Source: Hyphomicrobium sp.
GTDB lineage: Bacteria; Pseudomonadota; Alphaproteobacteria; Rhizobiales; Hyphomicrobiaceae
DNA: 64,000 nt
NCBI RefSeq assembly: GCF_051860585.1
Contig: NZ_JBHYDS010000011.1
Span: 27,093-91,092, forward strand
Direction of reading: 5' to 3'
Made by a program: the position numbers and the translations under genes. Numbering within the stretch: the stretch's first letter is position 1; each line of letters begins with the position of its first letter. Shown here one piece after another: positions 81 through 16,850 of this stretch. The notes below the pieces were generated by a model. It had not been told where the DNA came from. It made no database searches and worked only from the letters and a program-made list of their open reading frames with translations.

Positions 81-1028
81 ATGACCCTCGCCGCAACGAT
101 CGCCAGAACATTTTTTCTCAGCATCGCCGTCCCGGCCGCGGCACTTGCCTTCGTGTCCTGCGCAGCTTCGGCAGCGCCAACCAAACAGGCGACCTTCGCG
201 TCGCCGCAAGAGGCCGCCGAGGCGCTCGTCGCGGCCGTGCGGTCGGGCGACGCGGCCGACATCGTCAAGGTGCTCGGACCGGACGGCCGCGCGATCGCGA
301 GTTCGGGAGACGCCGTCGCCGACGCGTCCGCACGTGAGCGCTTCGTCGCGGCTTACGATGAACAGAACCAGATCCGGCAGGCGGGCGACGGCCCGCTGAC
401 ACTCTACCTCGGCCATGACGACTATCCCTTTCCGCTGCCGCTGGTGTCGGCTGATGGCAAATGGCGCTTCGACACGGCAGCCGGCGCGGAAGAGATCCTC
501 GACCGGCGCATCGGCGAGAATGAGCTGGCGGCGATCGAAGTGATGCGCGCGTACGTCGACGCACAGCGCGAATATGCCGAGACTGACTGGGACGGAAAGG
601 GCGCGCAGTACGCCCGCCGCCTGCTGAGCCGGGAGAACGTGAAGGACGGTCTCTATTGGCCGACCGCGGAAGGCGAACCGGAAAGTCCCCTCGGCCCGCT
701 TGTCGCCGAGGCCCGCGCGGAAGGGTATCGCAAGAAGAGAAGGGAACCCGAGCCCTACCACGGCTACCTCTTCCGGGTGTTGACCGCACAAGGCCCGCAC
801 GCCTCCGGCGGCGCGCGCACCTACATCGTCAACGGACGCATGATCGGCGGTTTTGCGCTCATCGCCACGCCGGCCGAATACGGAAATTCCGGCGTGAAGA
901 CCTTTGTCGTCGATCAGGACGGCGTCGTGTTCGAAAAGGACCTGGGCGAGAACACGCCCCCCGCGGCCAATAGCATCGAAGCCTTCAACCCCGAGAGCGG
1001 ATGGTCGTCCGTATCGAACACAAAGTGA
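81..1028 (+). CDS. DUF2950 family exported protein
   Basis: Signal peptide; FASPQEAAEALVAA, PFPLPLV, RRIGENEL, GLYWP, PYHGYLFR and FALIATPAEYGNSGVKTF motifs typical of DUF2950. ATG at 81 follows GGAGG. Confidence 0.85.
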   Translation: MTLAATIARTFFLSIAVPAAALAFVSCAASAAPTKQATFASPQEAAEALVAAVRSGDAADIVKVLGPDGRAIASSGDAVADASARERFVAAYDEQNQIRQAGDGPLTLYLGHDDYPFPLPLVSADGKWRFDTAAGAEEILDRRIGENELAAIEVMRAYVDAQREYAETDWDGKGAQYARRLLSRENVKDGLYWPTAEGEPESPLGPLVAEARAEGYRKKRREPEPYHGYLFRVLTAQGPHASGGARTYIVNGRMIGGFALIATPAEYGNSGVKTFVVDQDGVVFEKDLGENTPPAANSIEAFNPESGWSSVSNTK

Positions 1029-1203
1029 TCGAAGCGCGCTGGAAACCGATGAAAGTGAGCCGGCAGCGCAGCCGCATCCTCCGCGGGCGCCGGCATGGCG
1101 CTGCTCAGCCCTGAGACCGAGACGGAACAGCAGTGTCCAACCCGCAGGTCGGGCTGTTGTTCTGCCGCGACTAATCGCTTGTTTTTGCTAGTGTATTTAG
1201 CGA

Positions 1204-1222
1204 ATGGCGGTCCCTACGGGAG
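1204..1222. repeat. att core repeat (left junction), copy of the tRNA-Glu 3' end
   Basis: ATGGCGGTCCCTACGGGAG, identical to 44410-44428. Confidence 0.93.
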
Positions 1223-1253
1223 AACTAAGTCCAGTTCAAATCAATGAGTTAGG

Positions 1254-1314
1254 GTGGCAAACCCTCACTGGAGGCCACATTGATTTATTTGCTTTTTTAA
1301 ATGCATTGGCAAAC
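1254..1314. promoter_or_regulatory. Putative integrase arm-type sites (TGGCAAAC), left end
   Basis: GTGGCAAAC 1254-1262 and TGGCAAAC 1307-1314, just inside the left att. The same motif occurs inside the right att. Confidence 0.55.
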
Positions 1315-1394
1315 CGCATGCGCGGAGCGCCACGCGAGGCCTCGTGGATCGCGTCATTGCCGCTCGTTGGTGGCCAGAGGGTCGCGACCACGCA

Positions 1395-2420
1395 ATGAGC
1401 ACAAAAGAAAAGGCGTCTCCCGGCGCAACCGGGAAGCACACTCAGAACTCACTCAATGGTGCGTCGAATGTCTCTGCGGATATTTTCGTAGCAGACCATC
1501 CCCGTAAGAAGCGGCAGATCGACAAGGACGTTCCGATCGAGATCGTTCCGATCTTGGCGGGTGGATGCGTCGTAGGCCATCTCTGTCCCACAGAAAGGCC
1601 TCCAAAACGGAAGCTCAAGTACAAGCCCGGATCCCATCGTCGACGCGAGATTGAAAAGGTATTCAAACACCTGTTCCCCATAGAAGAAGGAGTCGTTCCA
1701 ACACGCGCGGAAGCGCGCGCATTTGCCATTGTGATCGCCGATCACGCCACGCAAGCCGAAGCATTCGGTTGGATATCCAAGAACCTCGCCCTCGAACTGC
1801 CTCCCGATGAAGTCCTGGCTATCGTCACGAACGCGCGCATGCGCAGTTGGAAGGCTGATGAACTGGCGAAGTTCCTCGCCGTGACGAAGGAAATTCGCGA
1901 CCAACTGCAACTGCGGACAATCGGAGCAACAGATTTTAACAAGCGGCAACGGATTGCGGATCGGAAGCGAAAAGCCCGATTGCGCATGCGCGCGGTACGC
2001 GCGCGACAGCAGGCCGGCAAGTCGCGACCGATTTCTGTTGCGGAGTCCAAACCGTGGGAGCTTGAAAACATTTCGCGCGCTTCGTGGTACCGCCGCAGGG
2101 CGGCCCGTATTGCGGCTGATGAGACTACCAGCGTGCGCAATACCAATAAAGAGAACCGTGCGCACAAAATCAGTCTCATAGCTGCAATATTGGAGGCCCT
2201 GGCAGACGGCGTGCGGAGCGTGCCCGAATTGAACCAAGCAACTGGATTCCCCTGCACAACCATCCGCCCAATTCTATCGCGCCTCAAAGCAGTTGGGATT
2301 GTCGACCAACCGCGCCACGGCCTCTGGCAGTCAAGCAAGCCGGCTGCGGGAGGCCCCCTGGCCGCCGCTCCAGATCGAAATACCGTATCGAAATACCGTA
2401 TCGAAGGAGATGAAGCCTAG
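1395..2420 (+). CDS. Putative replication-initiator-like protein with C-terminal HTH/wHTH
   Basis: KPWELENISRASWYRRR resembles the KPWxxxGISRxTWYRR motif of ColE2-like/island Rep proteins; basic helix; terminal winged-helix segment; position at island end. Confidence 0.5.
   Translation: MSTKEKASPGATGKHTQNSLNGASNVSADIFVADHPRKKRQIDKDVPIEIVPILAGGCVVGHLCPTERPPKRKLKYKPGSHRRREIEKVFKHLFPIEEGVVPTRAEARAFAIVIADHATQAEAFGWISKNLALELPPDEVLAIVTNARMRSWKADELAKFLAVTKEIRDQLQLRTIGATDFNKRQRIADRKRKARLRMRAVRARQQAGKSRPISVAESKPWELENISRASWYRRRAARIAADETTSVRNTNKENRAHKISLIAAILEALADGVRSVPELNQATGFPCTTIRPILSRLKAVGIVDQPRHGLWQSSKPAAGGPLAAAPDRNTVSKYRIEGDEA
2374..2405 (+). repeat. 13-bp tandem repeat (ATCGAAATACCGT x2.4)
   Basis: ATCGAAATACCGT-ATCGAAATACCGT-ATCGAA read directly. 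Confidence 0.85.
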
Positions 2421-3109
2421 CGTCGACTGACAGTCTAGACGCCGCCAATGGACGTGCCCAGCACCTTCCTACCGCCGCTTCGCCCGTAGTTGCTTCGCCA
2501 AAAGACGTGGCGGCAGCCCTGCGGCGCGCCGCCAGCGCGACGTCGCTTCTAAATGCCCAACCGGACCCTCAAGTAGTCCCCTCAATCCGGCGGGTTGTCG
2601 GGCCGATCTTGGAAATCAATGTGGAAAACAAAATGACTAACCGACTACCAAACCAAATGCATGATCCGAACAGTCGGTCGGTTCGCCATCGGTAGGGACA
2701 CCGCGAGCCCCCTCAACACGCGCGCAAGCGCTCACTTCTCGGAGGCGGGCGTCGTCCAGACATCCTGGGGATAGCAAGTCGACGATCTTTTGTGCAGCGA
2801 GCGAGAGCGAACTCATACTAGCCCGCAACGTCGCTGATAGCCGAAAGCATCATGCTGCTCGAACAATGGTGCAAAATGCTCCGACATCCGGCGCGTAACA
2901 GACAGCGAAAAACCGCTGGCTCCCACGGCCCCCAAGCAAGCAACGTGCTACATTCAGCGGATCCCGTGCGGCTGGTCAGCAATCGAGGCTGCGACAATCC
3001 GACATGATTTTGCATGAGACAAAAATTCTGGAATCGGGGTGTATTGACGGCAAGCTTGGGAGCCGTGCGTGACACACGGTGTTTCGCGATGCTCTCGAAG
3101 CGATGAACG

Positions 3110-3133
3110 ACCCGCCATCGGCGGGTTTTTTTT
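3110..3133 (+). terminator. Intrinsic terminator hairpin 1
   Basis: ACCCGCC-ATC-GGCGGGT followed by a T tract. Confidence 0.75.
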
Positions 3134-3158
3134 GCCTCGCTACCCTGACTATCTCAAT

Positions 3159-3190
3159 AAAACCCGCCTGTTCGGCGGGTTTTTGTTTTT
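3159..3190 (+). terminator. Intrinsic terminator hairpin 2 (possibly bidirectional)
   Basis: AAAACCCGCC-TGTTC-GGCGGGTTTT then TGTTTTT; same stem as hairpin 1. Confidence 0.75.
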
Positions 3191-3202
3191 GGAGAACAAA
3201 CC

Positions 3203-3409
3203 ATGCGTCTGAAGGAACTTTATTTCTTGCCGCCCCGCCATGCAGCAACTCTGCTGGAGCTTCCAGTCAGCGTCCTAAACAAATTGCGCATTGATAGCCG
3301 TGGGCCGAAGTGCATCAAGATCGGCCGGCAGGTCCTGTACCCCCTACACGATCTCTTGAATTGGCTTCCAACAGAGCGCCGAAAAGCTCGCAAGTATTTC
3401 AGCATTTGA
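3203..3409 (+). CDS. AlpA/Xis-like helix-turn-helix DNA-binding protein
   Basis: 68 aa; AATLLELPVSVLNKLR..GPKCIKIGRQVLY..DLLNWL pattern of the HTH_17/AlpA family; GGAGA RBS. Confidence 0.8.
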   Translation: MRLKELYFLPPRHAATLLELPVSVLNKLRIDSRGPKCIKIGRQVLYPLHDLLNWLPTERRKARKYFSI

Positions 3410-3461
3410 GCGTCCCGCAAGCCAAATAGAATTCTGAGGCACCCGCACAAAAAGGGATGGA

Positions 3462-3668
3462 ATGTACAAAGGCGTTAGATGGATCGTGGACATTACGTAC
3501 CACTCAGAGGCTGGTGACGTCGACGTTCGCCATCATCTGATGGAGCTGAAAGATCTGCATAATGTTGTCGAAGCAGGGCCGGATTGGCACTGCCTCAAAG
3601 GCATCGCGGTTTCGCTCGCCCGCCCTCCAGGCCAAGGGATCAAGACGCTGGAGGCCGCTGACGAATGA
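3462..3668 (+). CDS. Small hypothetical phage/island protein
   Basis: 68 aa, GGGATGG RBS, plausible composition (RWIVDITYHSEAGDVDV...GPDW). Confidence 0.55.
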   Translation: MYKGVRWIVDITYHSEAGDVDVRHHLMELKDLHNVVEAGPDWHCLKGIAVSLARPPGQGIKTLEAADE

Positions 3669-4317
3669 TCGCTTGGGCGCGGCAGCTGTTGCGTTGCCGC
3701 GCTTGCTCTTTCGCCCCCTCCGCAAGGCAAGTTCTGCTAATGCCTGCTTGTCACCAGTATGCAGACACGGCGTGCCGACGGAACGTATGCGTCGTTAATT
3801 GGCCGCCTATGTCGGTCCAGGGACGATGCGGTCGTACGCAGCTTCCGCAAGCAAGAAAGGGAAGTGTGGCCTCAGTTTGGACCTCACCAAATAAGCGGAC
3901 CACCCGCGTCTGCCCGCCACGACCGCACCGACTGTTCGCCGCTTCGTTATGCCAAGCCGAAAGCGAATGCTGCCGGGGGTGACAGTCTCGCTGTAGGCGT
4001 GAAGCTCAAAGCGAGACGGTTGATCACTTCGAGGCCGGCACCGAACCCGAAGAGGACCTCGCTCGTTGTCGCAACGGCGATGCGACCGGAACACCGCCAA
4101 AGCGAATTTCGAAACTCTCGTCGGATAATTCGCGAAGGTTGACGACGTCCAATTGTGAAATCCGGGAGCGATGCGGAGCTGAATAGAGCGTCTGCTCGCA
4201 GCGGCCGAGGAGGCGCACCGTCGTCTTGATCGGCTTACGTCCGCTCAGGACTTCGATGTGCCGACCCCGTGTCGAGCGCCGACTTCTATTGATGGGGCGA
4301 TCGCGGTCATACGCAAC

Positions 4318-4411
4318 GTCCGCTTTGCCGAGGAAGCAGACGCCGGAGAGATAGCTCTCGCACTTGCTTGCGCTCGGCGGTCGGATGTCGGCATTCCATC
4401 GCAAAGCGGAC
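4318..4411. repeat. Paired palindromic element (12-bp and 13-bp spacer sites), copy 1
   Basis: GTCCGC-N12-GCAGAC, 45 bp, GTCGGC-N13-GCGGAC. Confidence 0.75.
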
Positions 4412-4451
4412 GTGGGAGATACGACTCGGTGGGCCATGTGTGGACGGCTCC

Positions 4452-4708
4452 GGGCTGTCAAGGGTTTGGTCACGTAGCAGTGTTGGTCGGAGCAGCCATG
4501 TGTTCGGCCTTTGAGTGCGGCTCACAGGGCCGCTGGCCATAATGCCCTCCGCGGATCAGGTCCCGGTCAAAAGCTCGCATTCGAAGATGCTCTGGCCCAA
4601 GTGGGTTGTCCTGATCACCGGATCGACCGGTTCTGCATTACGTGCTGTCTGCCCTTTCCAACCGTTTCATCACGCCGTTGCCGGCGCGATCTCGCTAGCG
4701 TCGCGGCC
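4452..4708 (-). ncRNA. Putative bridge/seek RNA of the IS1111 element
   Basis: 257-bp non-coding region downstream of the transposase, containing segments that match both target flanks and the element end (see findings). Transcript ends unknown. Confidence 0.75.
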
Positions 4709-5740
4709 CTATCGAGCCAATGCGACGGGTTCCCTGTAGCTCTCGCCCTTGGCCATCATGGCCCAGGCCATACGTGCGATCTTGTTGGCGAGCGCGATCG
4801 CCGCGACTTTCGTCGGTCGGCGCTCGAGAAGTTTTGCAAGCCACGGGCGATGTTTGGTGCCGTGGATCCTGGCGTAGCGGATCACGGCCAGTGCGCCCGC
4901 ACAGAAGAGCGAGCGCAGATAGCGATCGCCCTGCTTGGTGATGCTGCCGAGCTTCTCTTTGCCACCGCTGGAGTTCTGTTTCGGCACCAGACCGACCCAT
5001 GCCGAGAAGTCGCGGCCGGATCGGAACGCCTTCGGATCGGCAACGCTCGCGACCAGTGCGGTTGCGAGTGCAGGACCGACGCCGGGGAGTTCGTCGAGCC
5101 GGCGGCTTGTCTCGTTCGAGCGATGCCAGGCGTTGATCTGGCGGTCGAACTCCAGGATCTGAGCTTTGAACTTGCTGAGCAGCGCACCCAGGGCTTCGAG
5201 ACACGCACGCGCGACCTCGGGAATACGCTCGTCCCTTTCATCGGCAACGGTGTAGAGCAACTCCTCCACGCCGTTGCGTCCGACCGGCGCCACGATACCG
5301 AACTCGGCCAGATGGGCGCGGATGGTGTTGATGACCGCAGTCTGCTGCCGGATGAAGAGGTGTCGCGTACGATGAAGCATTAGGCAGCTCTGCTGCTCGG
5401 TCGTTTTGGTCGGCACGAAGCGCATGCTCGGCCGCTGCACCGCCTCACAGATGGCCTCGGCATCGGCAGCACCGTTCTTCTGGCGTTTGACATAGGGCTT
5501 CACGTAGGCCGGGGGCATGAGCCGCACGGTATGCCCGAGGGCCTGCAGCTCGCGCGACCAATGATGCGACGTGGCACAGGCCTCAATGCCAACTAGGCAG
5601 GGCGGCAGCTTCTTGAAGAACGCGAGCACGTACCGGCGCTTCAGCTGTCGGCCGACAACAACGCTGCCCTGCGCATCGACCCCATGAACCTGAAAGACAG
5701 ACTTTGCGATGTCGAGGCCAACGACTGTGATTGCCTGCAT
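4709..5740 (-). CDS. IS110 family DEDD recombinase/transposase
   Basis: GLDIAK, GIEACAT, KNGAADAEAI, LDELPGVG, GLVPKQNSSGGK, KQGDRYLR, ALANKIAR motifs. One catalytic Asp (usual KND) reads KNG. Confidence 0.96.
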   Translation of the reverse strand: MQAITVVGLDIAKSVFQVHGVDAQGSVVVGRQLKRRYVLAFFKKLPPCLVGIEACATSHHWSRELQALGHTVRLMPPAYVKPYVKRQKNGAADAEAICEAVQRPSMRFVPTKTTEQQSCLMLHRTRHLFIRQQTAVINTIRAHLAEFGIVAPVGRNGVEELLYTVADERDERIPEVARACLEALGALLSKFKAQILEFDRQINAWHRSNETSRRLDELPGVGPALATALVASVADPKAFRSGRDFSAWVGLVPKQNSSGGKEKLGSITKQGDRYLRSLFCAGALAVIRYARIHGTKHRPWLAKLLERRPTKVAAIALANKIARMAWAMMAKGESYREPVALAR

Positions 5741-5874
5741 GATGAGCTCCTCCGGATCCTGGTCGCCTCATCGGCAACCGATTCCAAGGCGCTTGCGCGC
5801 CCCGTGAGGAGCCGTCCACAGCATCAAAAGCGGAAGCGACTAGCTCAGCCTCGCCACTCAGAAAGTGAGCTGGC

Positions 5875-7476
5875 TTATTTCGGCGCGATGACGGCCTTAG
5901 GCGGTTCGTTGCGATAGCGCCAGAATGCGGCTGCGCCCTGCTCAATACGCTCCATCATCGTTCCGCGAGCGTCGGGTGGATGGGTGCCGTCCATCAAGAG
6001 CACGCCGAGGTCCTGAAGGAGTGCAGCCTTTTCGGCGAATCCGCTGTGGTTCAAGCCAAAGAACTCCGTGCTTGTCGCCGTTACGTCAATCGTCTCCACG
6101 CCGGCGACAACAAGAGGAGTCGAAGGTGGGGCCGGGACGTCACCAGCACGCGCAACGCCGCCCGCAACGGTCCGAGAAGCGATAAGGGCTTTATCGCTCG
6201 AAGACGCGTAAAGGGTCACCCCTTGCGCAAAACTACCCAGATTGGTCGCGAGCGTCTCGAACACATCCCGGTCGATATCCGGCGCCGCGAGAATAATTTG
6301 GGAAACGACAGCACCGCCCTTAAGTCCGCCGGCGAGTTGAATCTTTTCAAGAGTGCGCAAGAGCGCCGCGTTGCCCATGCTGTGCGCGATAAGATGGACC
6401 TTTGTGGCTTTCGACTGCGTCGCCACCAGCTCGATGAAGTTGCGCAAGTAGTCGACGGACTGGTCAGCACTGTCCTTGTCGTATAGGTAGCCGGTCAATC
6501 CGCCGCCAGAGGGCCAGCTATAGAGGAAAGGTACACCGTCGAAGCCTATATCGTAGGCGATCTGGGCCGTGCGATAGAGGGCATTTTCGAACGAGACGTT
6601 GTAGCCGTGCACAAAGATGAAGGCTTGGTCCTTGAACGTTTGTGACGCGCCAAGCTGCTGTCGAACCGCCTCGATAAATTTCTCGCGACTGAGAACGCCG
6701 ATGTCTTGGATTGTAAAGTGTCGCCGCGGATCTTCGCTCAGCTCCAGTAGGGTGACGCCGAAAATCGAAAGCGCCCAGGGTCTTTCAATTATTGCCCGGT
6801 AATGGTCCTTGGGAATCGTAACAAGGGCTTTTCCTAGAACGAGGGCGCGCGCTCGCGCGCCAGCGAAAGATGCGCGCTCCGTTCCCGACGCTTGTTTGCG
6901 GTCGGTGCCGAAGAACACTGGGACGGCGTCGTAAGGCTCGTCTGCCGCTTCGTCAACGCCGGGGACCGGCCCTCTTTCGACCAACGCGTCATCGGGGCTG
7001 GACGATCCGCTGGCGTTAAGCTGGCTCGCCATGGCCTCATCGGTTTCAGCTTGGTCTCCGTCACCTCGCAGGCGGTGGACCAGCGCGCGCTCCTGATAAG
7101 CGGAGGCAAGCTTTGGATCGAGGGTGATCGCGTGCGCAAGCTCGGCGAGCGCACGGTCCACATCGCCGGCCAGTCGCAACACCAAAGCCTTGGCGACATA
7201 TGACCTCGCTTTATTCGGATCGAGCGCGATTGCCTTGTCCGAGTCGGAAATTGCACTGTCGATCTTCCCCAGCTCGGCGTAGGCGCGTGCCCGGAACAAG
7301 TGGGCCTCGACAAGCCGTTCGCTGGCTGTGTCGCCCGCGACGATGATTTCCGTGCAAGCTTGTACTCTTGTCGAAAGCTCGCCGCTTTCGCAGTCCTGCA
7401 AAACGTCCGCGCTGCCAACCGAGCTCACGGCGAGCCAGACGATCAGCGCAAGAAGGCCAGAAGGTCGGCGCAGCAT
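5875..7476 (-). CDS. Exported TPR-repeat + DUF900 alpha/beta hydrolase (esterase-like)
   Basis: Signal peptide, three TPRs, VPVFFGTDR, FVHGYNVSF, YSWPSGG, HLIAHSMG, LAAPDID, terminal HS; GGGGAG RBS. Confidence 0.85.
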   Translation of the reverse strand: MLRRPSGLLALIVWLAVSSVGSADVLQDCESGELSTRVQACTEIIVAGDTASERLVEAHLFRARAYAELGKIDSAISDSDKAIALDPNKARSYVAKALVLRLAGDVDRALAELAHAITLDPKLASAYQERALVHRLRGDGDQAETDEAMASQLNASGSSSPDDALVERGPVPGVDEAADEPYDAVPVFFGTDRKQASGTERASFAGARARALVLGKALVTIPKDHYRAIIERPWALSIFGVTLLELSEDPRRHFTIQDIGVLSREKFIEAVRQQLGASQTFKDQAFIFVHGYNVSFENALYRTAQIAYDIGFDGVPFLYSWPSGGGLTGYLYDKDSADQSVDYLRNFIELVATQSKATKVHLIAHSMGNAALLRTLEKIQLAGGLKGGAVVSQIILAAPDIDRDVFETLATNLGSFAQGVTLYASSSDKALIASRTVAGGVARAGDVPAPPSTPLVVAGVETIDVTATSTEFFGLNHSGFAEKAALLQDLGVLLMDGTHPPDARGTMMERIEQGAAAFWRYRNEPPKAVIAPK

Positions 7477-7502
7477 TTGCAATCTCCCCACGCACGTTAC
7501 GA

Positions 7503-10466
7503 CTATGGCGGCGGCGACCGCTGCACACGGGCAAGCAAAAGATCGGGGACCGCGAGCGGCATGTTGACTGTCGGCGTTTGGCGATTGGCGGTCAGGTCTC
7601 TGACGCGCTCCTTGACGTACGTCTGCAGCATCGACGTCGTAATGTAGTCGCGATCGCGATATTCGGCTGCCCCGTTTATCCCTTCGACGACGGCCTTCGT
7701 GAAGGCTCCGTTTTTCCAGATTGCGGTTTCCAGAGAATTCTGCTTTCCGGTCGACGAAGCATACACGATGACGCCCATGGACGGCTGGCTTACTTGACTG
7801 ACGAAACCGATCACGTCCATCGGCACAAGTCCTGGGCCGAATATTCCGCCAGCGCGACAGGTATCGACAAAAAGCACCCTGCTGCCGACAATGCGCTTCA
7901 AGGCGGAGAGCAACTCGACGTAAGAGAGCGCAGTGTTCGGGAGCTGGGAGAGATTGGCGTCACGGGGTAGAAAATAGTAAATCCCGTCGCGGGTATCCAA
8001 ACCGTGACCGGCAAGGAAGACCATTCCAATGTCTGTCGGGCCGACCATCTTTGTCAGCCAGTCAAGTCCGCTGCGCATTCCTTCCAGAGTCGCCTCTTGG
8101 TTCGTAATGATTTTTGAAACCACGTCGACGAACGCTTTGTCTTTTTGCTGCACGACGGCGCTTACGAAGTCAGAGGCGTCCTTGGCGGGAAAGCTAAGTT
8201 TCAATTTCTTGTTGGCGTATTCGCTGACGCCGATGGCCAGCACATAGACTTTGCGTTTTTCAGCAGCGATGCCGGCTTGCTCGCCTGTCCATTTGAGGCG
8301 GACAGATGCCGGCTCGCTCGTCGAGAATCGATTGCTTGCAAAGAGCACCACTTCGCTATCCCGTTGCGGAACGATGATCTTGCGTTCGCCGATGACCTCA
8401 TTGCCCGCGCCGAGAGGAGGCGCCTCAAAAGTTCCGAGCGGATGGTCATCACTGCGTATGATGACCTCGTTTATGGGCTCACCCGATGGCGCTCGCAGAC
8501 GGTAACGCAGGACGACCTCGGGGCTGTTGATGCTTGCTCCGTTCTGAGGCTCCAGTATCTCGATGACCGGCGGCAGCAGCTCGGCGAAGTCCCGTTGCTT
8601 TTCCTCTCGGCCGCCTTCCGCGTTCGCTTCGCGAATTGCCTGAGCTTCGTCCAGAGCAGCGAGGGTCTTCACGACGATGCTTGGCTTGTAGTACTTGTCT
8701 CTGAAGCGTCCGACCGAAAAGAAATCCGCGGAATTATCGCGGCCGCGATTGACCTGCCACCCAACAAGCGAGTCGCCGCCTACGGACGACATGAAGTATC
8801 CGGATGGTGTCCAAGCGACCCAGCGCGCTCCGTCCGGATGTGGGAAGAAGGCCAGCAGTTCGGTCCCGGTGTCCATCGCGTACCAGCGGATGGTGCCGTC
8901 TCCGAGCGCGGCAACGACCAGCCGGTTGTCAGCGGTGGCCACCAAACCGCGAGCGGCGAAAGGAAGTTGAGTCGACCATAGAACCTTCGCTTCCGCATCG
9001 TAGCGTATGATGCGCCACGCGGTTCCCAAGAGAAGCGTCTTTGCGTCCGCCGCAAAGGTCAGGGACAAAGCCTGTTCCAGGGTTTTCAGCGGCAAAGGAA
9101 TGCCGTTGAGCGTTGGCTCGTAGCTTCGGCTCCAGTTGCGCACGTCGAGATCGGGCACATTGGTGACAGGAGAGGTCATCTCGATGTCGGCGGGTCCGTC
9201 GCCCTTCTCGATCACGCGGTCCAACAGAGAGAAGTACGCCGGCTCTGCACCAGATGGCTCGTAGGCGAACCGAATGGCAGTTCCGTCACGCGATACGGAA
9301 AGTCGGTCACCGACCTCGGTGTAATCAGCGACCTTGAGCCGCCGTTCCGTCGTCAACTTGTCGTTGGGTCCGATGAGCCCGATGTAGGGAACCTCGCTCG
9401 TGAAAGCCAATCCCCCGGTCGAGATGCCCGTCATACGCATGATTTGATTGGAGGGGCCCGGGATATCGAGCGGTCGCCCCCTGCCGCCGTCCGCCCAGCG
9501 GCGGAATGGAAAGCGATTCCCCTTTTGCCAGGTGCCTCCCGCATACAGCGACTTGCCGTCGGGCGACCACACGACACGCCACAAGGCACCATTGTCGACC
9601 CCACGCACGTCGGGACTGAACAGATCGGTCAGGTCGGTCGCGGAGATGACGTCGACCGCTGCGTGCCAGCGCTCTTCGGATTTTATGGACTCGTCATATG
9701 CGACGGCAAGCTGCGTCCCGTCCGGCGAGAAGCTTACGCCATCGGGCCGGCGACCCTCGCGCATGGTGCGGCTGGCGATCAGTTTGAAATTGCTGTCGTA
9801 GAGGCGAATCTTGCCATCGTAGCAGGATGTGACGAGCCGGCCGGTCGGGTCGAACTCAACCCATACGCTGTTCGAGCCATAGTCACGATCCTCGAACGCG
9901 AGGGAATAGTCGCTTGTCCGATAGACACGCAGGCCCTTTCCCGCCTTCAGCGCGAACGCAAAATACTTCCCATCTTTGGAGTAGGCAATGTGGTTGGCCC
10001 GATGCGGCAAATCGCAGACGGACTTGCGCATGTCGCCCACTTTGACGTCGATCACGTAGAAGCACCAGGGGCCGTCCACTCCGGCCCAGGCGCCCGTCCA
10101 GCCGGTTGTGATCAGCGTGTTGCCGTCAGGAGAGAATTCGACCGCGTACACCGCGCCTTCGTTGCCTTTGCCAACCGGCAGACGGATCGTGCGCGTCGGC
10201 TCCAGCTTCGGAATGGACCAGATGCGGACGGTCTGGTCATAGGCCGCGGTCGCCAGATGCGTGCCATCGGCGCTCGACGCGAGACCGAGAATAATGCCGG
10301 TGTGATCGCCTGTTTCGATTCGGAGTTTGGGATCCGGAACGACGTCCTGCGCCGGCGCAAAGCTTGTCCAAGCGCTTAATAAAAGCCCAATCAGAATGGT
10401 CTTAAGAGGAGAATTACGCAACCATGACCCCCGTGGCGTTGGCGATGAGCCTACGCGAACCCGCAA
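7503..10466 (-). CDS. Exported WD40 beta-propeller + caspase-like (peptidase C14) protein
   Basis: LRIETGDHT start, WD repeats, WVAWTPSGYF, Ig-like linker, VLAIGVSEY, FLAGHG (His), VDTCRAG (Cys), NGAFTKA, QTP. True start may be ~50 nt downstream. Confidence 0.88.
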   Translation of the reverse strand: MRVRVGSSPTPRGSWLRNSPLKTILIGLLLSAWTSFAPAQDVVPDPKLRIETGDHTGIILGLASSADGTHLATAAYDQTVRIWSIPKLEPTRTIRLPVGKGNEGAVYAVEFSPDGNTLITTGWTGAWAGVDGPWCFYVIDVKVGDMRKSVCDLPHRANHIAYSKDGKYFAFALKAGKGLRVYRTSDYSLAFEDRDYGSNSVWVEFDPTGRLVTSCYDGKIRLYDSNFKLIASRTMREGRRPDGVSFSPDGTQLAVAYDESIKSEERWHAAVDVISATDLTDLFSPDVRGVDNGALWRVVWSPDGKSLYAGGTWQKGNRFPFRRWADGGRGRPLDIPGPSNQIMRMTGISTGGLAFTSEVPYIGLIGPNDKLTTERRLKVADYTEVGDRLSVSRDGTAIRFAYEPSGAEPAYFSLLDRVIEKGDGPADIEMTSPVTNVPDLDVRNWSRSYEPTLNGIPLPLKTLEQALSLTFAADAKTLLLGTAWRIIRYDAEAKVLWSTQLPFAARGLVATADNRLVVAALGDGTIRWYAMDTGTELLAFFPHPDGARWVAWTPSGYFMSSVGGDSLVGWQVNRGRDNSADFFSVGRFRDKYYKPSIVVKTLAALDEAQAIREANAEGGREEKQRDFAELLPPVIEILEPQNGASINSPEVVLRYRLRAPSGEPINEVIIRSDDHPLGTFEAPPLGAGNEVIGERKIIVPQRDSEVVLFASNRFSTSEPASVRLKWTGEQAGIAAEKRKVYVLAIGVSEYANKKLKLSFPAKDASDFVSAVVQQKDKAFVDVVSKIITNQEATLEGMRSGLDWLTKMVGPTDIGMVFLAGHGLDTRDGIYYFLPRDANLSQLPNTALSYVELLSALKRIVGSRVLFVDTCRAGGIFGPGLVPMDVIGFVSQVSQPSMGVIVYASSTGKQNSLETAIWKNGAFTKAVVEGINGAAEYRDRDYITTSMLQTYVKERVRDLTANRQTPTVNMPLAVPDLLLARVQRSPPP

Positions 10467-10502
10467 ACGGACGATGCTCTATTTGCGGGCTCGATCCGTC
10501 GC

Positions 10503-10682
10503 TTATTCGCCGCTTCCGCTAGGGGTCGGAGTGTCGCCTCCCTCGCCGGAGCCACTTTCACCAGAACCACTTTCGCCCCCACCTGCGACGACGGGATCGT
10601 AGCTGAGAACCAAAACGGCCGCAGATGCGGTCAGCAGTGCCGCGAGCGCCCAGGCGACAACCGAATACTTCCTCATCGCCAT
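10503..10682 (-). CDS. Small secreted Gly/Ser/Glu-rich peptide A (59 aa; not in ORF track)
   Basis: MAMRKYSVVAWALAALLTASAAVLVLSYDPVVAGGGESGSGESGSGEGGDTPTPSGSGE*, translated by hand; GGTGAGG RBS; paralog directly upstream. Confidence 0.8.
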   Translation of the reverse strand: MAMRKYSVVAWALAALLTASAAVLVLSYDPVVAGGGESGSGESGSGEGGDTPTPSGSGE

Positions 10683-10780
10683 GGCAAATCGACCTCACCT
10701 CAATGGTTCGAATCAACGCTTCCAACCAAACGTTTTTCTAGATGCGTCGCGGCCGTTTGGTCTGGCTCGCCGAGCCAAGC

Positions 10781-10936
10781 TCACTCTCCAGACGTCTGGA
10801 CTTCGCCGGTTCCGCTTGTCTTGCCTTCGTCGTCAGGCCCGGCGGCAACGGGGTCGTTGCTCAGAACCAGCCCGGCAATCGACGTCGTGAGCAACGCAGC
10901 CAATACCCACGCGAGAATGGAATTCTTCATAGACAT
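10781..10936 (-). CDS. Small secreted peptide B (51 aa; not in ORF track), paralog of peptide A
   Basis: MSMKNSILAWVLAALLTTSIAGLVLSNDPVAAGPDDEGKTSGTGEVQTSGE*; AAGGGGG RBS. Confidence 0.8.
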   Translation of the reverse strand: MSMKNSILAWVLAALLTTSIAGLVLSNDPVAAGPDDEGKTSGTGEVQTSGE

Positions 10937-11094
10937 GACCCCCTTAAATTCTTGCGGAGCGAGTTTTCAGCAAAACTTGTAACTTACGATTATCATGCGT
11001 GCACAGACAGCGATAGGTCATTGCTATCTATAAATTGTGTTGTCGACTGGTTTGTCACAGCGCCGCTTCAGCGGTCATCCAAACAGGGATTGCC

Positions 11095-12870
11095 ATGGCG
11101 GAAGATCATCAAGACTCACGATTGTTTTCAACGGACTTCCAGTCCCTGAGCCTGTTTCGCATTGTTTTTTCGATCTACCTGCTCGGGGATTTCTTTCTCA
11201 TGAACGCGCCGTATTTCGGCGACTTTTATACCGACGCCGGTTTTCTGCCATTATCGTCACTCGAGGCGAACCGCGACATATCGGGCATGCCGGCCATCTA
11301 TCCCGTGCTCAAGTTGCTGGAATGGCTGCAGCTTCCAGCCCTATTGCCGTACCTCTATCCCGCCGCGTTGATTGGCTTTGCACTGGGATACCGGACGCGT
11401 TGGTGCAACGGCATCGCCTTCCTCCTCTATTGTTACCTTTTCTGGCGCAATCCCTACATCAGATCGGGGGCGGAGAGCCTCGCACATCTGTTGCTGTTGT
11501 GGTGCCTTTTCCTGCCGATGAACCGATACTGGGGCGTCGATGCGGCGCTCGACAAGGGCGCGCGCAATCGCGCCTACCCTGTGCTTCCGTACATCGCGAT
11601 CAAGCTGCAGGTTTGCTCGGTCTACTTTTTTGCGGCACTTTTCAAGCTGGGCGGTGCACCCTGGCGAGACGGCTTCGCGATCTCCTGGGCGCTAAGCGAC
11701 AACGCATTTGGAGGTACTCCGGCGGGGCTCTATCTCGTCGAGAATGCCCCCTTCGTCCTCACGCTGGCGACCTACGCGGTGATGGCTCTCCAGCTGTCGT
11801 TTCCGCTGCTCGTATTCGCACCCTGGCGAAACGACGTCGCGCGCGCGGTTGCGTTGGGCGGTGTAGCGCTGATGCACATTGCATTCGTGTTTGCGCTGAA
11901 CATCGGAGGATTTCCATTCCTTTGCTTGACGATGCTTCTGCTGTTCGTCCCCGACTCCTGGGTTGAGAAGCTCTTCCAATGGCGCAGGGAGAGACTCCGG
12001 CGCGTTTCGATCTATTTCGAGCCGGACTGCGGGTTCTGCGAGAAGACCGCGCTACTCCTGCGCGAATTCCTGCTGCCCCCGTCTACGCCTGTGCTGCCGG
12101 CATCCGCCGATCCTGAAATGCTGCGGCTTTTGCGCGAGCAAAACTCCTGGGTCGTTCGTGGCGCCGACGGCCAAGTGCATCTCAAGTGGCGCGCGGTGTC
12201 CTACGTCTTGAGCGAGAGTCTTTTGCTTTGGCCGTTGGCCTGGTTCATGGATCTAGGCTTGCTCCGGCGCTCCTTTGAACGGCTTTACGACCTCTTCGGC
12301 CGACACCGGGGGCCGCTCGGATCACTCGCCGCGTTCTTTCTGAAGTTCAGAAACGAGGCTGTACCTGGCCAGCCTGCTCTCGCTCTATGCGCTTGGTTGA
12401 TGCTGCTCGCGCTCGTCGGCAACATTCATCATGCCCTGAGACCCTCGTATGACAGGCCGACGGGGCTCGATCATCTCGTGGCCGCATGGCAAGTAGGGCA
12501 GCGTTGGAGTTTGTTTGCCCCAATCCCGATACACTCCCAACATAGCTACGAGGCGATCGCGCGCACGGCCGATGGCTCGACCTTCGATATCTTGGCGTTG
12601 TCCACAAAGCCCCTCCTGTGGATGCGGGGTAAAGACGGGCTGGAATTTCCCAACCATCGCTGGCTCAAATACTTCAATCGGGTCGATAGCCTAGCCGAAA
12701 GGGATCGCGTCGCGCTAGGCCACTATCTCTGCCGGCTCGCGCGCGAAAGGAGCACCGCGACCGTTGATGTCCGGAATGTCGTTTTCACGTCGTCACGCGC
12801 GTCGTTCGTGGCGCACTTGCCAGAGAGTCCCTCACGCTCCAAAACGCACACATTCGAATGCGGCAAGTAA
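11095..12870 (+). CDS. HTTM-domain membrane protein (gamma-carboxylase/SdpB-like) fused to a DCC1-like thiol-disulfide domain and an SdpA-like C-terminus
   Basis: SLSLFRIVF, LALGYRTR, WRNPY, VYFFAALFKLGGAPWRDG, ALMHIAF TM block; FEPDCGFC (DCC1/DUF393); QRWSLFAPIP. Confidence 0.8.
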   Translation: MAEDHQDSRLFSTDFQSLSLFRIVFSIYLLGDFFLMNAPYFGDFYTDAGFLPLSSLEANRDISGMPAIYPVLKLLEWLQLPALLPYLYPAALIGFALGYRTRWCNGIAFLLYCYLFWRNPYIRSGAESLAHLLLLWCLFLPMNRYWGVDAALDKGARNRAYPVLPYIAIKLQVCSVYFFAALFKLGGAPWRDGFAISWALSDNAFGGTPAGLYLVENAPFVLTLATYAVMALQLSFPLLVFAPWRNDVARAVALGGVALMHIAFVFALNIGGFPFLCLTMLLLFVPDSWVEKLFQWRRERLRRVSIYFEPDCGFCEKTALLLREFLLPPSTPVLPASADPEMLRLLREQNSWVVRGADGQVHLKWRAVSYVLSESLLLWPLAWFMDLGLLRRSFERLYDLFGRHRGPLGSLAAFFLKFRNEAVPGQPALALCAWLMLLALVGNIHHALRPSYDRPTGLDHLVAAWQVGQRWSLFAPIPIHSQHSYEAIARTADGSTFDILALSTKPLLWMRGKDGLEFPNHRWLKYFNRVDSLAERDRVALGHYLCRLARERSTATVDVRNVVFTSSRASFVAHLPESPSRSKTHTFECGK

Positions 12871-12880
12871 GGGGTCTCGA

Positions 12881-14101
12881 CTAGGAAGCGTCGGCGCTGG
12901 TTGCAATGACGTTCTTGAGTCCGCTTGGCAATCGCGCAATGGCGAGAGCGAGCAATTGTGCCCGCGGAACAAGCGAACTCACCTCGATATACTCGTCATC
13001 TGAATGACCGTTGTGGCCAACAGGCCCGACCGAACAAAGTGTCGGGCAGCCCTGAGCCGCTGTAATGGCCGAGTCGGCGCCTCCTCCAACTGAAATGCCT
13101 TGGACGTCGAGGCCCAAAACCTGTCCTGCCATCTTGTATTCCGCCAAGAGCCAGGTTGACTCCTCGGTGATTTCGAGTGGCTCACGCTCGCTGTCGATCG
13201 TCAGCGTCGCATGAGTCCCTTCGAGGTGAGCGGTCTCGATAACCCTTCGGACTGCGGCTAGAGCCGCTTCACGGTCGTTGCAGTGGACATAGCGCAAGTC
13301 GATACGCGCAGAGGCGTAAGGGGCGATCGTGTTGACGCTCTGGCCGCCCGAGACCATGCCGACGTTGACCGTGACGCCTTTGTCGAAATCTGTGAGCGCG
13401 TGAAGGCGCACGACCTTGCGCGCCAGTTCCTCGATAGCTGAGATGCCATCTTTCGGGGCTGCGCCGGCATGGGCCGCCTTACCGAAAATTTCGACCGTCA
13501 TGAATACTCCGCCTTTTCGCGCGACGACGACGATATCCTTTGTGGGCGAAGGCTCGGAGTTGAAAGCGGCCCGCGCACGCCGACCCTGAACCTCGATATA
13601 GGCGCGTGACGACGGCGACGAGATCTCCTCATCGGCGGTGATGAGTGCCACTAGCGGACCAGGATGGCCCCCGAAGCGCTTGAAAGCCGCCAGCACGAAT
13701 GCGTTCATGACCAGCCCTGCCTTCATGTCCGCGACGCCAGGACCAAACGCATTGTCGCCGTCGATGCGAAAAGGCCGCCGTGTCGCCTCACCGGAGCCGA
13801 AAACCGTATCTCGGTGACCCATCAGCAGGATATCCCGCTGGTCTTGCGCGGCCGGCTGGGGGAGCAGCACGCGCATCAGTTCGCCATACGTGTCGTTTGG
13901 CGTGACCTCGATCTCGATCCCCGCTGCAGAGAAGAAGTCCCTCAGAATAGTACCTGCCGCATCGACGCCGCGCTTGTCGAAAGAGCCGGAATCCTGGTTC
14001 ACCAGTCTGGCGAGCAGGTCGAGCATCGCTTGTTGCTGAGCAGCCAACCACTCGAGGACATTCTGTTGCGCGATGTCGGTCAGACGCGCGTTAGCCGCCA
14101 T
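12881..14101 (-). CDS. M20 family metallopeptidase (glutamate carboxypeptidase-like)
   Basis: MGHRDTV, GPGVADMKAG, DEEISS, NSEP, GKAAHAG, GGGADS, GHSDDEY. Confidence 0.9.
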   Translation of the reverse strand: MAANARLTDIAQQNVLEWLAAQQQAMLDLLARLVNQDSGSFDKRGVDAAGTILRDFFSAAGIEIEVTPNDTYGELMRVLLPQPAAQDQRDILLMGHRDTVFGSGEATRRPFRIDGDNAFGPGVADMKAGLVMNAFVLAAFKRFGGHPGPLVALITADEEISSPSSRAYIEVQGRRARAAFNSEPSPTKDIVVVARKGGVFMTVEIFGKAAHAGAAPKDGISAIEELARKVVRLHALTDFDKGVTVNVGMVSGGQSVNTIAPYASARIDLRYVHCNDREAALAAVRRVIETAHLEGTHATLTIDSEREPLEITEESTWLLAEYKMAGQVLGLDVQGISVGGGADSAITAAQGCPTLCSVGPVGHNGHSDDEYIEVSSLVPRAQLLALAIARLPSGLKNVIATSADAS

Positions 14102-14383: not shown

Positions 14384-14635
14384 CTCAGCGTCTGCGCAGT
14401 CGCCTGGCTCGCGACGTCTGCATTGTAGGGTCTGTCCCTTGATATTGAGCAACTCCGGAGCGTCTTCGCTTCGGTTATCAGTAAGCTGAAATCATTGTCA
14501 TTCGCCGGGTTGTGACATTGCCGCCGATAACTGCAGAGCCCGATCTCTCTCTTGCACCCCGCTCTCAGGCGGGCGAGGCTTGGAGACGACGCACAATTGG
14601 ATTTAAGGTTTCTCGTGGCTATTGGGAGACTTCAT

Positions 14636-15781
14636 ATGAAACAGTCCATCACTCTTGTGCATGGAACGTTTGCCCCCGAAGCGCCATGGACCAACGAAGG
14701 GTCCTATCTTTGCCAAGCATTGCAGGTTCGCTTTACCGGTACGGCAGAAATCCATCGCTTTCAATGGACCGGAAAAAACAACCACAGACACCGTCGGCAG
14801 GCCGCCTCTGAATTAGAGGCGCACTTGACAGCTGAAGTTGAGCGGAAACCGCATTCCGATCACTTTATCATCTGCCATAGTCACGGCGGCAACATCGCCC
14901 TTATGGCACTCCGGGACCCCTCGCTACAGAGCAAAGTCGCGGCAGTTATTTGCCTCAACACACCTTTCCTCCACGCTTTTCAACGGAGCCTCTTCACAGC
15001 ATTGTTTCTACCGGTCACAATCATTTTGGTAGCCAGCCTAATCATGTTCTACCCGGCCGCACTTGCCGCGACCGAAGCTTCCTGGTCGGCGGAGTTCACG
15101 CTATTGGCAGCGGGATGCTGCTTAGTCTTGCTCGCAGCTCTCCTGAATCGGCTGTTTCCAATTGATGCATTGCAGAATCTCGTGCCCAAAGTCATTGACG
15201 AATTGACGTTGCCCGCTATCAGCAACGTGCGGGTCACCTGCATCACCACAGCGAGCGACGAAGTCTTCGACGGGTTGAATGGGTTATCTGCATTCAACTC
15301 ATTCCTACTGCATCTTCTTCGTCCCAGACCGCTGTTCGTAACTTTGACCGCAATCGCCGTGACGAGTTTGGCGGGCTGGCTGCCACCGTTCCCTGCGCTT
15401 GAAAGCATTCCATTCCTCGGTAGTGAGCTTGCGCGGATTCGTACTGGTAACGCGGAGACGCTGTCCGCTGCGTCAATCCTCATCTACTCTTTCGCTTCGG
15501 CAGCACTCTATGGCGCTACCCTCATCGTCGTCGTACATCTTTTCGCCTGGGCGAGGCTGAAATGGTACGGCGCTCAAGGGATCCCTCTCTATGCTGCGCC
15601 GCACGTAGCGGTGTTGACAACGCCGACCCCGGTCACTGCGGAAAGCATTCGCTTCGTGGAGATAGACGCATTTCAGCTGAGGCTGAACCATTCGGCCTCC
15701 TACACCAACCCGGAAATCGTGGCACTCGTCGTTGACTTGTTGAAGCCAGCGCCAAAACCGCCAGAGCAGGCTATGGCCTAG
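14636..15781 (+). CDS. Membrane-associated alpha/beta hydrolase (lipase-like)
   Basis: ITLVHGTF, FQWTG.N, ICHSHGGNIAL nucleophile motif, several TM helices, terminal NHSASY. Confidence 0.75.
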   Translation: MKQSITLVHGTFAPEAPWTNEGSYLCQALQVRFTGTAEIHRFQWTGKNNHRHRRQAASELEAHLTAEVERKPHSDHFIICHSHGGNIALMALRDPSLQSKVAAVICLNTPFLHAFQRSLFTALFLPVTIILVASLIMFYPAALAATEASWSAEFTLLAAGCCLVLLAALLNRLFPIDALQNLVPKVIDELTLPAISNVRVTCITTASDEVFDGLNGLSAFNSFLLHLLRPRPLFVTLTAIAVTSLAGWLPPFPALESIPFLGSELARIRTGNAETLSAASILIYSFASAALYGATLIVVVHLFAWARLKWYGAQGIPLYAAPHVAVLTTPTPVTAESIRFVEIDAFQLRLNHSASYTNPEIVALVVDLLKPAPKPPEQAMA

Positions 15782-15989: not shown

Positions 15990-16637
15990 TAAGATATCGA
16001 TCTTCTCGGCGATTTCTATCGCGTCGTCGACCTCAATGCCGAGGTACCTTACCGTGCTTTCGATCTTCGAATGCCCAAGCAGGAGTTGGACAGCTCAAAG
16101 GTTTCCGGTCCGCCGATAGATGAGCACCGCCTTTGTCCGACGCAGCGAGTGCGTACCGAACTTGGCCGGGTCGAGACCGATACTGGCGATCCACTCAAGA
16201 ACCAGGCGAGCATACTGCCGCGTTGTCAGCCCACCTCTGTCGCCACGACCAGCGAATAGGAATTGACCCGGCTTGCGTCCAGTCAAGCGCAGATACTAGT
16301 CGATGGCCTGGCGTGTCTGATCGGCCAGCTCAAACCGTACCGGTCTGCCAGTTTTCTTCTGTCGGATTGTTGCGCGGTCCATCGAGTATCCGCTCGGCGC
16401 AACATCATCTACGCGAACGGCCACTACGTCACAGCCGCGAAGCTTGCTGTCGATCGCTAGGTTGAACAGAGCAAGGTCTCTTTTCTTGCCCTCGATTTGG
16501 AGCTTTGTACGGATCGACCAGACGTGGCTCGGGCGCAAGGGCGGCTTCGCGCCCACCAGTTTGCCCTTGTTCCAGGGGACGCGAGCGGGCTTGGCAGCCG
16601 GTTCAGTAGCAGTAGGTGCACTCGGATGGTCTTCCAT
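15990..16637 (-). pseudogene. Minimal (~210 aa) tyrosine recombinase of the PWNKGK type, two in-frame nonsense codons
   Basis: PWNKGKLVGAKPPL, IDSKLRGCD, QKKTG, THSLRRTK, LLGHSKIESTVRYLG all in one frame, interrupted by TAG (16296-98) and TGA (16095-97); AAGGAG RBS. Confidence 0.9.
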
Positions 16638-16850
16638 GGTCAGTCTCCTTTTCTGAGAGACAAACCAGCATGCGCCTCCGTCCACCTAACCTGCTGATCT
16701 CACGACCGGTCTCAGCCTACTTCTTCCATTTATTGGTTACTGCCCGTCGAGTTTGACCCATAGCTGTCATCGACACCGGCGATTGCGGCTCATTCGCGAA
16801 TTGATTGCCCGTTGCCGCACGAGCGGAGGTACAGACTTCCGCTTTGCTTT

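Follow-up and report, generated by a model that had tools for sequence, protein, structure and literature searches.

Two very small open reading frames (ORFs) that lie beside, and divergent from, the gene of a membrane enzyme in Hyphomicrobium sp. raise the question of whether they are genes at all and, if they are, whether their products are substrates of that enzyme. They lie in a stretch of 64,000 nucleotides of contig NZ_JBHYDS010000011.1, which we call the window (WIN among the loci named below). Their neighbour encodes a protein with an HTTM domain and a DCC1-like domain, related to GGCX, the gamma-glutamyl carboxylase that depends on vitamin K. The analysis identified the two ORFs as genuine genes of a rare, conserved family, and the linkage of this family to the enzyme gene is tight. 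As to function, we see about an even chance that the locus is a mobile three-part module, as sequence comparison suggests, in which the tail of an exported peptide is tailored or processed by the GGCX-like enzyme and acts on a periplasmic sensor-effector.

Peptide gene A occupies 10503-10682 on the minus strand and encodes 59 residues; peptide gene B occupies 10781-10936 on the same strand and encodes 51 residues. A preliminary description of this DNA had reported such a pair of ORFs of fewer than 60 codons, each with a ribosome-binding site, and we found both, each preceded by a Shine-Dalgarno-like motif: AAGGGGG, 3 nt 5' of the ATG of B, and a purine-rich motif, GAGGTGAGG, the end of which lies 10 nt 5' of the ATG of A. 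Nearly all members of the peptide family are preceded by similar motifs. A and B are paralogs, 60% identical over 47 residues (BLASTP, E=1e-13), and their alignment bears out the earlier statement that they have a leader in common and that both end in SGE. By inspection, a signal peptide is predicted at residues 1-33 of A, with cleavage after PVVA, and at residues 1-32 of B, with cleavage after PVAA. This would leave A with a 26-residue Gly/Ser/Glu tail (10506-10583) and B with a 19-residue acidic tail (10784-10840). Peptide gene B and the enzyme gene on the opposite strand are separated by a divergent intergenic region of 158 bp (10937-11094), which is presumed to be a shared regulatory region; consensus scans of 10300-11200 for sigma-70 promoters and intrinsic terminators gave no match.

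The possibility that A and B are chance ORFs in GC-rich DNA was ruled out by two lines of evidence, the first being the pattern of substitution. Among peptide orthologs taken from genomes whose enzymes are only 66-75% identical, the ratio of nonsynonymous to synonymous substitution rates (dN/dS) was 0.02-0.4, indicating purifying selection, with dS saturating at about 1. The tail of peptide B and that of its ortholog in L014 differ by eight synonymous changes and one nonsynonymous change (dN/dS = 0.02), and the tails are thus constrained at least as much as the leaders. The second line of evidence is the specificity of a profile built from 28 family members, which recognized only A and B among 80,074 frames of the 4.15-Mb genome (next match, E=0.015) and gave 31 matches in 1.84 billion representative proteins, 29 of them 37-62 residues long. 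Orthologs of B with almost the same tail are present in L014 and L033, and orthologs of A in L014, L033, L016 and L046. In L053, a metagenome locus 96% identical to that of the window, both peptide genes had already been annotated by gene callers, and A differs by a single amino acid. A search of 5.8 billion proteins found homologs in metagenomes, on contigs that retain the neighbourhood. The peptides correspond to no family in Pfam, NCBIfam or PADLOC, and a search of 24 genomes of the same genus and 400 of the same order returned just signal-peptide-like noise within large ORFs.

The question of whether the peptides belong with the enzyme was addressed by gathering homologs of the latter from reference genomes, metagenomes and a protein database. 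Every enzyme homolog of 43-96% identity with enough flanking sequence is adjoined by one to four tandem peptide genes, giving about 20 loci (WIN, L053, L046, L033, L014/15/32, L054/L016, L039, L047, L035/36, L034, L037/38, L048, L041, L030, L049, L042, L040, L050 and G804/L058). The co-occurrence of peptide and HTTM-DCC1 genes, which had been put forward as a check, was thus observed in all of these loci, and it persists despite rearrangement: the peptide genes take up at least six arrangements relative to the enzyme and caspase genes. They may be divergent and upstream of the enzyme gene. In L037/38, L041, L048 and L058 they share its strand and lie downstream of it, in L042 they are antisense in the interval that separates it from the caspase gene, in L050 they are upstream of an operon of caspase and enzyme, and elsewhere, as in the window, they are upstream of the caspase gene. 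The adjacency of a putative precursor, with a variable core and a conserved part that may serve recognition, to a candidate tailoring enzyme was therefore found in about 20 loci. Enzyme homologs at 39% identity or less (L031, L052, L051, L057, L043/44) have no adjoining peptide ORF. A 79-residue ORF called upstream of the caspase gene in L050 is Arg-rich, lacks the family features and looks spurious.

Peptides and enzyme are both absent from 24 genomes of the same genus and from 16 others of the same order, and an enzyme homolog is present in only 2 of 400 genomes of the class, from which we conclude that the module is rare and accessory. No enzyme homolog was found among 72,556 plasmid records. 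The region is flanked on one side by an IS110-family transposase gene (4709-5740, minus strand) and on the other by an integrase-like ORF fragment (16095-16685, minus strand); because of these flanks and the absence of enzyme and peptides from the 24 congeneric genomes, it looks like an acquired island.

Inspection of about 55 distinct family members revealed a common layout. Met and a Lys or Arg come first; the next 20-23 residues are without charge, and an early one among them is often Trp; after these come a Pro, a break of the small-x-small type and a hydrophilic tail. The break is exemplified by PVVA|G, PAYS|G, PSYS|G, PASA|D, QPAYA|A, PTAMA|G and AAVA|G; the residues at -3 and -1 stay small throughout the family, and Y, V, A, E, S or M may occupy -2. 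Such a pattern after a Pro is the signature of recognition by signal peptidase I, and, judged from their sequences, the precursors appear to have the canonical layout of a Sec signal peptide. The conserved-leader/variable-core arrangement proposed in the preliminary description holds across the family, in that the leader is conserved and the tail is specific to the lineage. The leader itself, however, does not resemble that of a typical peptide made by ribosomes and modified after translation (RiPP) and has instead the appearance of a Sec signal peptide that carries a site for signal peptidase I.

The tails are 4-30 residues long, hydrophilic and rich in Gly, Asn, Asp, Ser and Pro; they are kept among orthologs and differ between lineages. 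Many have just 4-9 residues, such as ARDNC, RTNTD, GPKEDR and DTGNAPQPK; another tail is GPKPDSDR. Paralogs within one locus usually end alike, in SGE in the window and in SSTGY, NGSN, ANC/ASC or GTGGST elsewhere, and the Gly/Ser/Glu repeats are an elaboration of the window's clade only. Several tails lack Glu; AANC, VQANC and ANASC carry no acidic residue, and the three tails of L047 have neither Asp nor Glu. AANC, VQANC and ANASC belong to a subgroup (L047:4229-4791, minus strand; P0112, P0116, P0118) in which tails of 4-5 residues end in Asn-Cys or Ser-Cys (AANC, VQANC, ANASC, ARDNC, KQANC, GNNC); the window peptides have no Cys. A small called gene of 52 codons in L048 (9729-9887, minus strand), 2.8 kb from the enzyme gene, also encodes a signal-peptide-like N-terminus and a Cys in its tail, and falls outside the peptide family profile.

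The leader seems to be subject to more than the needs of export. When pairs of genomes are compared, the leaders of the peptides share 58-70% identity, whereas the signal peptides of the caspases encoded in those genomes share only 21-50%, which argues that the leader is constrained beyond those needs; the first 300 residues of the caspase past its signal peptide are 71-84% identical in these pairs. Such extra constraint would fit recognition of the leader by a membrane partner.

The candidate partner is the enzyme encoded at 11095-12870 on the plus strand (591 residues; Pfam HTTM, E=1.7e-17). Its HTTM domain covers about residues 1-300 and is followed by a DCC1-like thioredoxin-fold domain (about residues 305-415) with a CxxC motif (C312/C315, 12028-12039), a transmembrane helix (residues 426-448) and a C-terminal alpha/beta domain (residues 449-591) with invariant C546 and C589, conserved residues being read from an alignment of 61 sequences. 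The preliminary description had pointed to an HTTM protein about 160 bp from the peptides with a segment at 11620-11664 matching the Lys-bearing segment of GGCX, and this proved correct. In a phmmer comparison with solved structures, enzyme residues 69-303 align with human GGCX (E=1e-10), residues 176-190 align with the Lys218 segment, and K184 (11644-11646) falls on Lys218. K184, W190 and F273, the equivalents of GGCX Lys218, Trp223 and Phe299, are each at least 90% conserved in 61 relatives, and the equivalent of His287 is also kept. With an AlphaFold2 model of the enzyme (61 sequences; pLDDT 92.6), all Foldseek matches at E<=0.006 (ranks 1-16) were GGCX structures, the best 15 at E 3e-9 to 3e-6; the whole-enzyme TM-score of 0.41-0.46 is compatible with superposition of the HTTM half alone. 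The DCC1-like assignment comes from a match to PF04134 (E=1e-3 on the excised domain, with 109 of 113 profile positions covered), which is also seen in 45 of the 61 family members (best, 1.6e-10), and C312 and C315 are nearly invariant.

Four other active-site residues of GGCX are not kept. Asn159, His160, Asp263 and Asn290 correspond to Gly125, Ala126, Gln233 and Phe264, in a phmmer alignment that is gapless between strong anchor motifs. In addition, the genome (99.99% complete) yielded no MenA, MenD matches below the cutoff only and no futalosine-pathway PF02621; UbiA scored above its cutoff. Because the four residues are lost and the menaquinone pathway was not found, the protein belongs to the GGCX superfamily of enzymes without being an orthodox Glu carboxylase of the vitamin K-dependent type.

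Taken with the positive-inside rule, the predicted helices suggest that the enzyme spans the membrane nine times and has its N-terminus inside, which would make its DCC1-like domain cytoplasmic and its C-terminal domain periplasmic. K184, W190 and F273, together with an SGAE motif, are predicted to lie at the periplasmic face of the membrane, on the side where the tail of a peptide would lie. An AlphaFold2 model of just the C-terminal domain (pLDDT 79.8) gave no significant match in the PDB (best E=7.5e-3, TM-score 0.23, not GGCX), so that an equivalence of this domain to the luminal domain of GGCX is unproven. Similarity to DUF5819 (PF19136) is marginal (E=0.055 for the enzyme, with matches in 3 of 61 relatives), and an SdpA-like reading of this domain found no profile support.

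The third component varies. In the window it is a protein with a WD40 beta-propeller and a caspase domain (7503-10466, minus strand; Pfam WD40 and Peptidase_C14), the gene of which shares the strand of peptide gene A and starts 36 bp downstream of it. Its signal peptide is predicted to be cleaved after APA and before QD, and the His/Cys dyad is intact; the signal-peptide-like N-terminus and the GHG/DTC motifs are kept in all homologous caspase loci examined. Directly downstream, as also in L046 and L053, is a gene for a TPR protein with a DUF900 alpha/beta-hydrolase domain (5875-7491, minus strand; Pfam DUF900, E=5e-56, and TPR) and a signal-peptide-like N-terminus, after which comes, in the window, the IS110 transposase gene. 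The WD40-caspase gene lies beside the enzyme gene, in several orders, in most loci (WIN, L053, L014/15, L033, L046, L054, L030, L035/36, L040, L042, L049, L050), so that the caspase is the commonest third partner, in agreement with the association that the preliminary description had proposed to look for.

In L037/L038, L047 and L048 there is no caspase gene, and a TIR-nSTAND1 protein is instead encoded beside the enzyme and peptides (L038:7293-10604, minus strand; L047:8651-11590, minus strand; L048:1925-4792, plus strand). It has a single predicted transmembrane helix (at about residues 612-689) between the NTPase and a C-terminal domain that is FGE-sulfatase/PvdO-like or TPR. These proteins resemble NLR-like receptors that are transmembrane and have their sensor in the periplasm. 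A possible fourth case of the TIR-STAND type is L058, which has an ORF (1194-2348) that converges on the peptide gene and looks TPR-like by eye. The partner proteins are predicted to face the periplasm, by virtue of signal peptides in the caspase and TPR-DUF900 proteins and of the transmembrane helix in the TIR-STAND proteins, and each locus appears to couple a periplasmic repeat domain of the peptide-binding type, or a lectin-fold domain, to a death-type effector. In PADLOC, neither the enzyme nor the peptides nor the hydrolase matched any model, and the only matches obtained were generic ones to caspase and TIR domains.

The three-part module, which is the reading that we favour, could operate as follows. 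The precursor would insert in the inner membrane with its tail in the periplasm, and the GGCX-like enzyme would recognize the conserved leader helix within the membrane. The enzyme would then modify or process the tail, probably by means of ubiquinol and O2, with the cytoplasmic CxxC domain serving cofactor recycling. Signal peptidase would free the tail, and the lineage-specific product would be bound or cleaved by the periplasmic repeat-domain sensor-effector, that is, the WD40-caspase and TPR-DUF900 proteins here and a TIR-STAND protein with an FGE/PvdO-like or TPR domain elsewhere. In this scheme we infer leader cleavage, the action of the enzyme on the peptide, the chemistry and the role of the tail as a ligand; the chemistry is unlikely to be classical Glu gamma-carboxylation.

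Several observations weigh against the scheme. At 20-23 residues, the hydrophobic stretch is longer than one would expect if the signal peptide were cleaved and could just as well be a membrane anchor, and cleavage was judged by eye only. There is no residue common to all tails, so that no single chemistry is obvious, and even a quinol-dependent oxygenase activity is uncertain because the four GGCX active-site residues are not kept. Neither the structure search nor the marginal DUF5819 match provides a relative for the C-terminal domain. Lastly, the loci come mostly from related Alphaproteobacteria and are therefore not fully independent of one another.

One could carry the module further and envision a peptide-based system of self/kin recognition or of envelope-status signalling, in which the mini-peptides are tailored by a quinol/O2-dependent GGCX-like enzyme and read by periplasmic WD40, TPR or FGE sensors that gate death-type effectors. 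The latter might be the exported caspase with the lipase-like hydrolase, or the transmembrane TIR-STAND protein. We regard this signalling role as speculative and, on balance, rather unlikely.

Alternatively, the peptides might be uncleaved, single-pass micro-proteins of the inner membrane whose transmembrane helix makes them subunits, chaperones or regulators of the HTTM enzyme, the tail being secondary. The length of the uncharged stretch, which is that of a transmembrane segment, would be expected of such proteins, as would some tails of just 4-5 residues and a leader that varies less between the genomes compared than an ordinary signal peptide does; moreover, in a related split system the transmembrane helix of the DUF5819 partner is predicted to pack onto HTTM-DCC1 (bioRxiv 10.64898/2026.08.19.745780). 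However, the conserved Pro and the small-x-small break form a cleavage signature of signal peptidase I, the tails are under strong purifying selection (dN/dS of 0.02 in the case of peptide B), and the presence of one to four tandem paralogs with differing tails suits substrates or signals better than a stoichiometric subunit. We consider this explanation improbable overall, although it is the strongest of the competitors.

A different view would tie the peptides to the caspase alone, as substrates, inhibitors or leaders of the upstream-ORF type, and make the HTTM gene an unrelated neighbour. In the window, the peptide genes do lie directly upstream of the caspase gene on the same strand, with a gap of only 36 bp. 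Against this, L038, L047 and L048 have no caspase, and their peptide genes still lie beside the HTTM gene; the peptide genes of L046 and L054 are transcribed divergently from the HTTM gene and converge on a gene for an M20 peptidase. The latter two loci rule out an upstream-ORF or leader-peptide function because nothing lies downstream of the peptide gene. We therefore hold an exclusive tie to the caspase to be quite unlikely.

Classical gamma-carboxylation of Glu in the peptides by the HTTM enzyme, which the preliminary description had raised as a possibility, fared worse. The HTTM fold and the equivalents of Lys218, Trp223 and Phe299 are kept, and the tails of the window's clade are rich in Glu. 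However, Glu-rich tails are confined to that one clade, the family as a whole does not conserve Glu, and acidic residues are missing from some tails altogether. In GGCX, Asn159 and His160 hold the Glu carboxylate, and Asp263 and Asn290 assist Lys218 or bind the quinol (PMC12647623, PMC13486548); N159A and H160A impair carboxylation (PMC12647623), and variants at Asp263 lose activity, with the exception of D263E (PMC13486548). The loss of all four residues, and the failure to find menaquinone biosynthesis genes in a genome in which UbiA is present, make this chemistry very improbable.

We consider it equally implausible that the HTTM enzyme matures the peptides, as precursors of bacteriocins, into secreted toxins of the Sdp/YIT kind: SdpB does belong to the same superfamily (TIGR04033, E=2.8e-9), and SdpC and YitM carry secretion signals, require SdpAB and YitPO, respectively, and in the case of yitPOM are accompanied by a protease gene (PMC6818787), but the enzyme scores only 37 bits against a cutoff of 178 with the SdpB model, no match to SdpA (enzyme) or SdpC (peptides) was found at E<=0.1, the hydrophobic SDP and YIT toxins contrast with these tails, which are short and hydrophilic and contain much Gly, Asn, Asp and Ser, and no SdpI/SdpR-like immunity genes were seen at the locus. 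The analogy to SdpAB and SdpC drawn earlier thus stands at the level of the superfamily and fails at that of the family.

How the proposed module relates to known systems can be seen by comparison, first with GGCX and its propeptide substrates. The active-site side of the enzyme is likewise predicted to face a non-cytoplasmic compartment, where the substrate tail would sit, and a conserved N-terminal element of the substrate could serve recognition, in addition to the shared fold and the retained equivalents of Lys218, Trp223, Phe299 and His287. Unlike GGCX, the enzyme lacks the four residues named above, in a genome in which no menaquinone pathway was found; it has an inserted cytoplasmic DCC1-like domain with a CxxC motif, and its C-terminal domain is not detectably similar to the GGCX luminal domain. 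Moreover, its candidate substrates are signal-peptide precursors of 35-66 residues with no conserved Glu. The example of MloH, a bacterial GGCX homolog that acts on Asp (PMC12647623), indicates that bacterial members of the superfamily can act on residues besides Glu.

In B. subtilis, SdpAB and YitPO process precursors that bear signal peptides (PMC6818787). There, too, an HTTM-superfamily protein is genetically required for maturation of a Sec-signal precursor, and a protease gene is near (PMC6818787). The system described here differs in its Gram-negative host, its caspase or TIR-STAND partners, its hydrophilic tails and the lack of SdpI/R. A predicted complex of HTTM-DCC1 with DUF5819 (bioRxiv 10.64898/2026.08.19.745780) has the same HTTM plus DCC1-like architecture, and the DUF5819 partner consists of a transmembrane helix and a domain, like the ninth helix and C-terminal domain of our enzyme. 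In our case, this third part is fused, and its match to DUF5819 is marginal, as noted above. Neither small peptides nor partners of the caspase or TIR type figure in the work on that complex (bioRxiv 10.64898/2026.08.19.745780). NTP-dependent and kindred conflict systems described by Kaur, Burroughs, Iyer and Aravind in 2020 include peptide-processing modules coupled to STAND-TPR proteins and pairs of alpha/beta-hydrolase and caspase (PMC7159879). The combinations of caspase with alpha/beta hydrolase and of TIR with STAND NTPase and TPR or FGE-sulfatase are shared with our loci, and accessory peptide-processing modules were proposed to make signals in those systems; no HTTM protein or carboxylase is mentioned (PMC7159879). 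Here, in contrast, the caspase and hydrolase are predicted to be exported, the STAND protein to be transmembrane, and the peptide enzyme is GGCX-like and not a radical-SAM enzyme or peptidase.

The peptides also call to mind the precursors of exported signalling peptides. Those of the Phr type (Rap-Phr, RRNPP) have about 40 residues and consist of a Sec signal peptide and a very short C-terminal peptide. Phr and the pherotype systems AgrD-AgrB and ComX-ComQ share with our loci the tandem paralogs, the lineage-specific tails and a membrane or tailoring enzyme encoded beside the precursor, and the receptors of Phr-type systems, like those proposed here, are repeat-domain (TPR-like) proteins. Unlike those systems, the alphaproteobacterial loci have no RRNPP, AgrC or ComP homolog, and what may serve as receptors in them are WD40, TPR or FGE domains that face the periplasm and are fused to or paired with death-type effectors. 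The proposed module would be of a known kind, in which a ribosomal peptide comes with a sensor and with a membrane enzyme dedicated to its tailoring. None of the known systems compared joins mini-peptides, a GGCX-like enzyme and exported caspase or transmembrane TIR-STAND partners, and full-text literature searches found no description of this combination.

The peptides are the first candidate natural substrates for the GGCX-like enzyme family in Gram-negative bacteria. Because they are short, easily synthesized and genetically linked to the enzyme in this locus and about 20 relatives, the substrate question can be put directly to the test by co-expression and mass spectrometry. They also represent a previously unnamed family of exported mini-proteins, missed by standard ORF cut-offs and tied to exported caspase-like proteases and transmembrane TIR-STAND proteins. 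This points to an envelope-facing branch of bacterial death- or immunity-type systems, possibly under the control of secreted, lineage-specific peptides; such control is, to our knowledge, essentially without precedent in Alphaproteobacteria. If the signalling role outlined above were true, the peptides would be the first natural peptide substrates of bacterial vitamin K carboxylase homologs, within a pherotype-like system coupled to programmed cell death or immunity.

Among the remaining neighbours, the gene next to the enzyme in the window (12881-14101, minus strand; Pfam M20) encodes a glutamate-carboxypeptidase-like M20 peptidase without a signal peptide, which scores 267 bits with the NCBIfam glutamate carboxypeptidase subfamily model, below the cutoff of 349. 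An M20 gene adjoins the module in WIN, L053, L014/15, L032, L046, L054, L016 and L050, in varied orientations, and is not adjacent in the more distant loci L030, L035, L040 and L047-49. It is possible that the gene is an accessory of the module or that it merely reflects conserved synteny. The peptides of M20-bearing loci mostly end in Glu (SGE). In L014, on the far side of the M20 gene (83-6000, minus strand), a gene for a Peptidase_C14 protein of 663 residues overlaps that of a trypsin-like protease; the segment also holds two genes of about 438 codons and resembles a separate conflict-type system of caspase and trypsin. Farther along in the window, a gene at 14552-15781 (plus strand) encodes a protein of 409 residues with weak similarity to alpha/beta-hydrolases (PGAP1-like/Abhydrolase_6) in its N-terminal half and a C-terminal half that looks hydrophobic by eye; this gene was not found beside the module in other loci.

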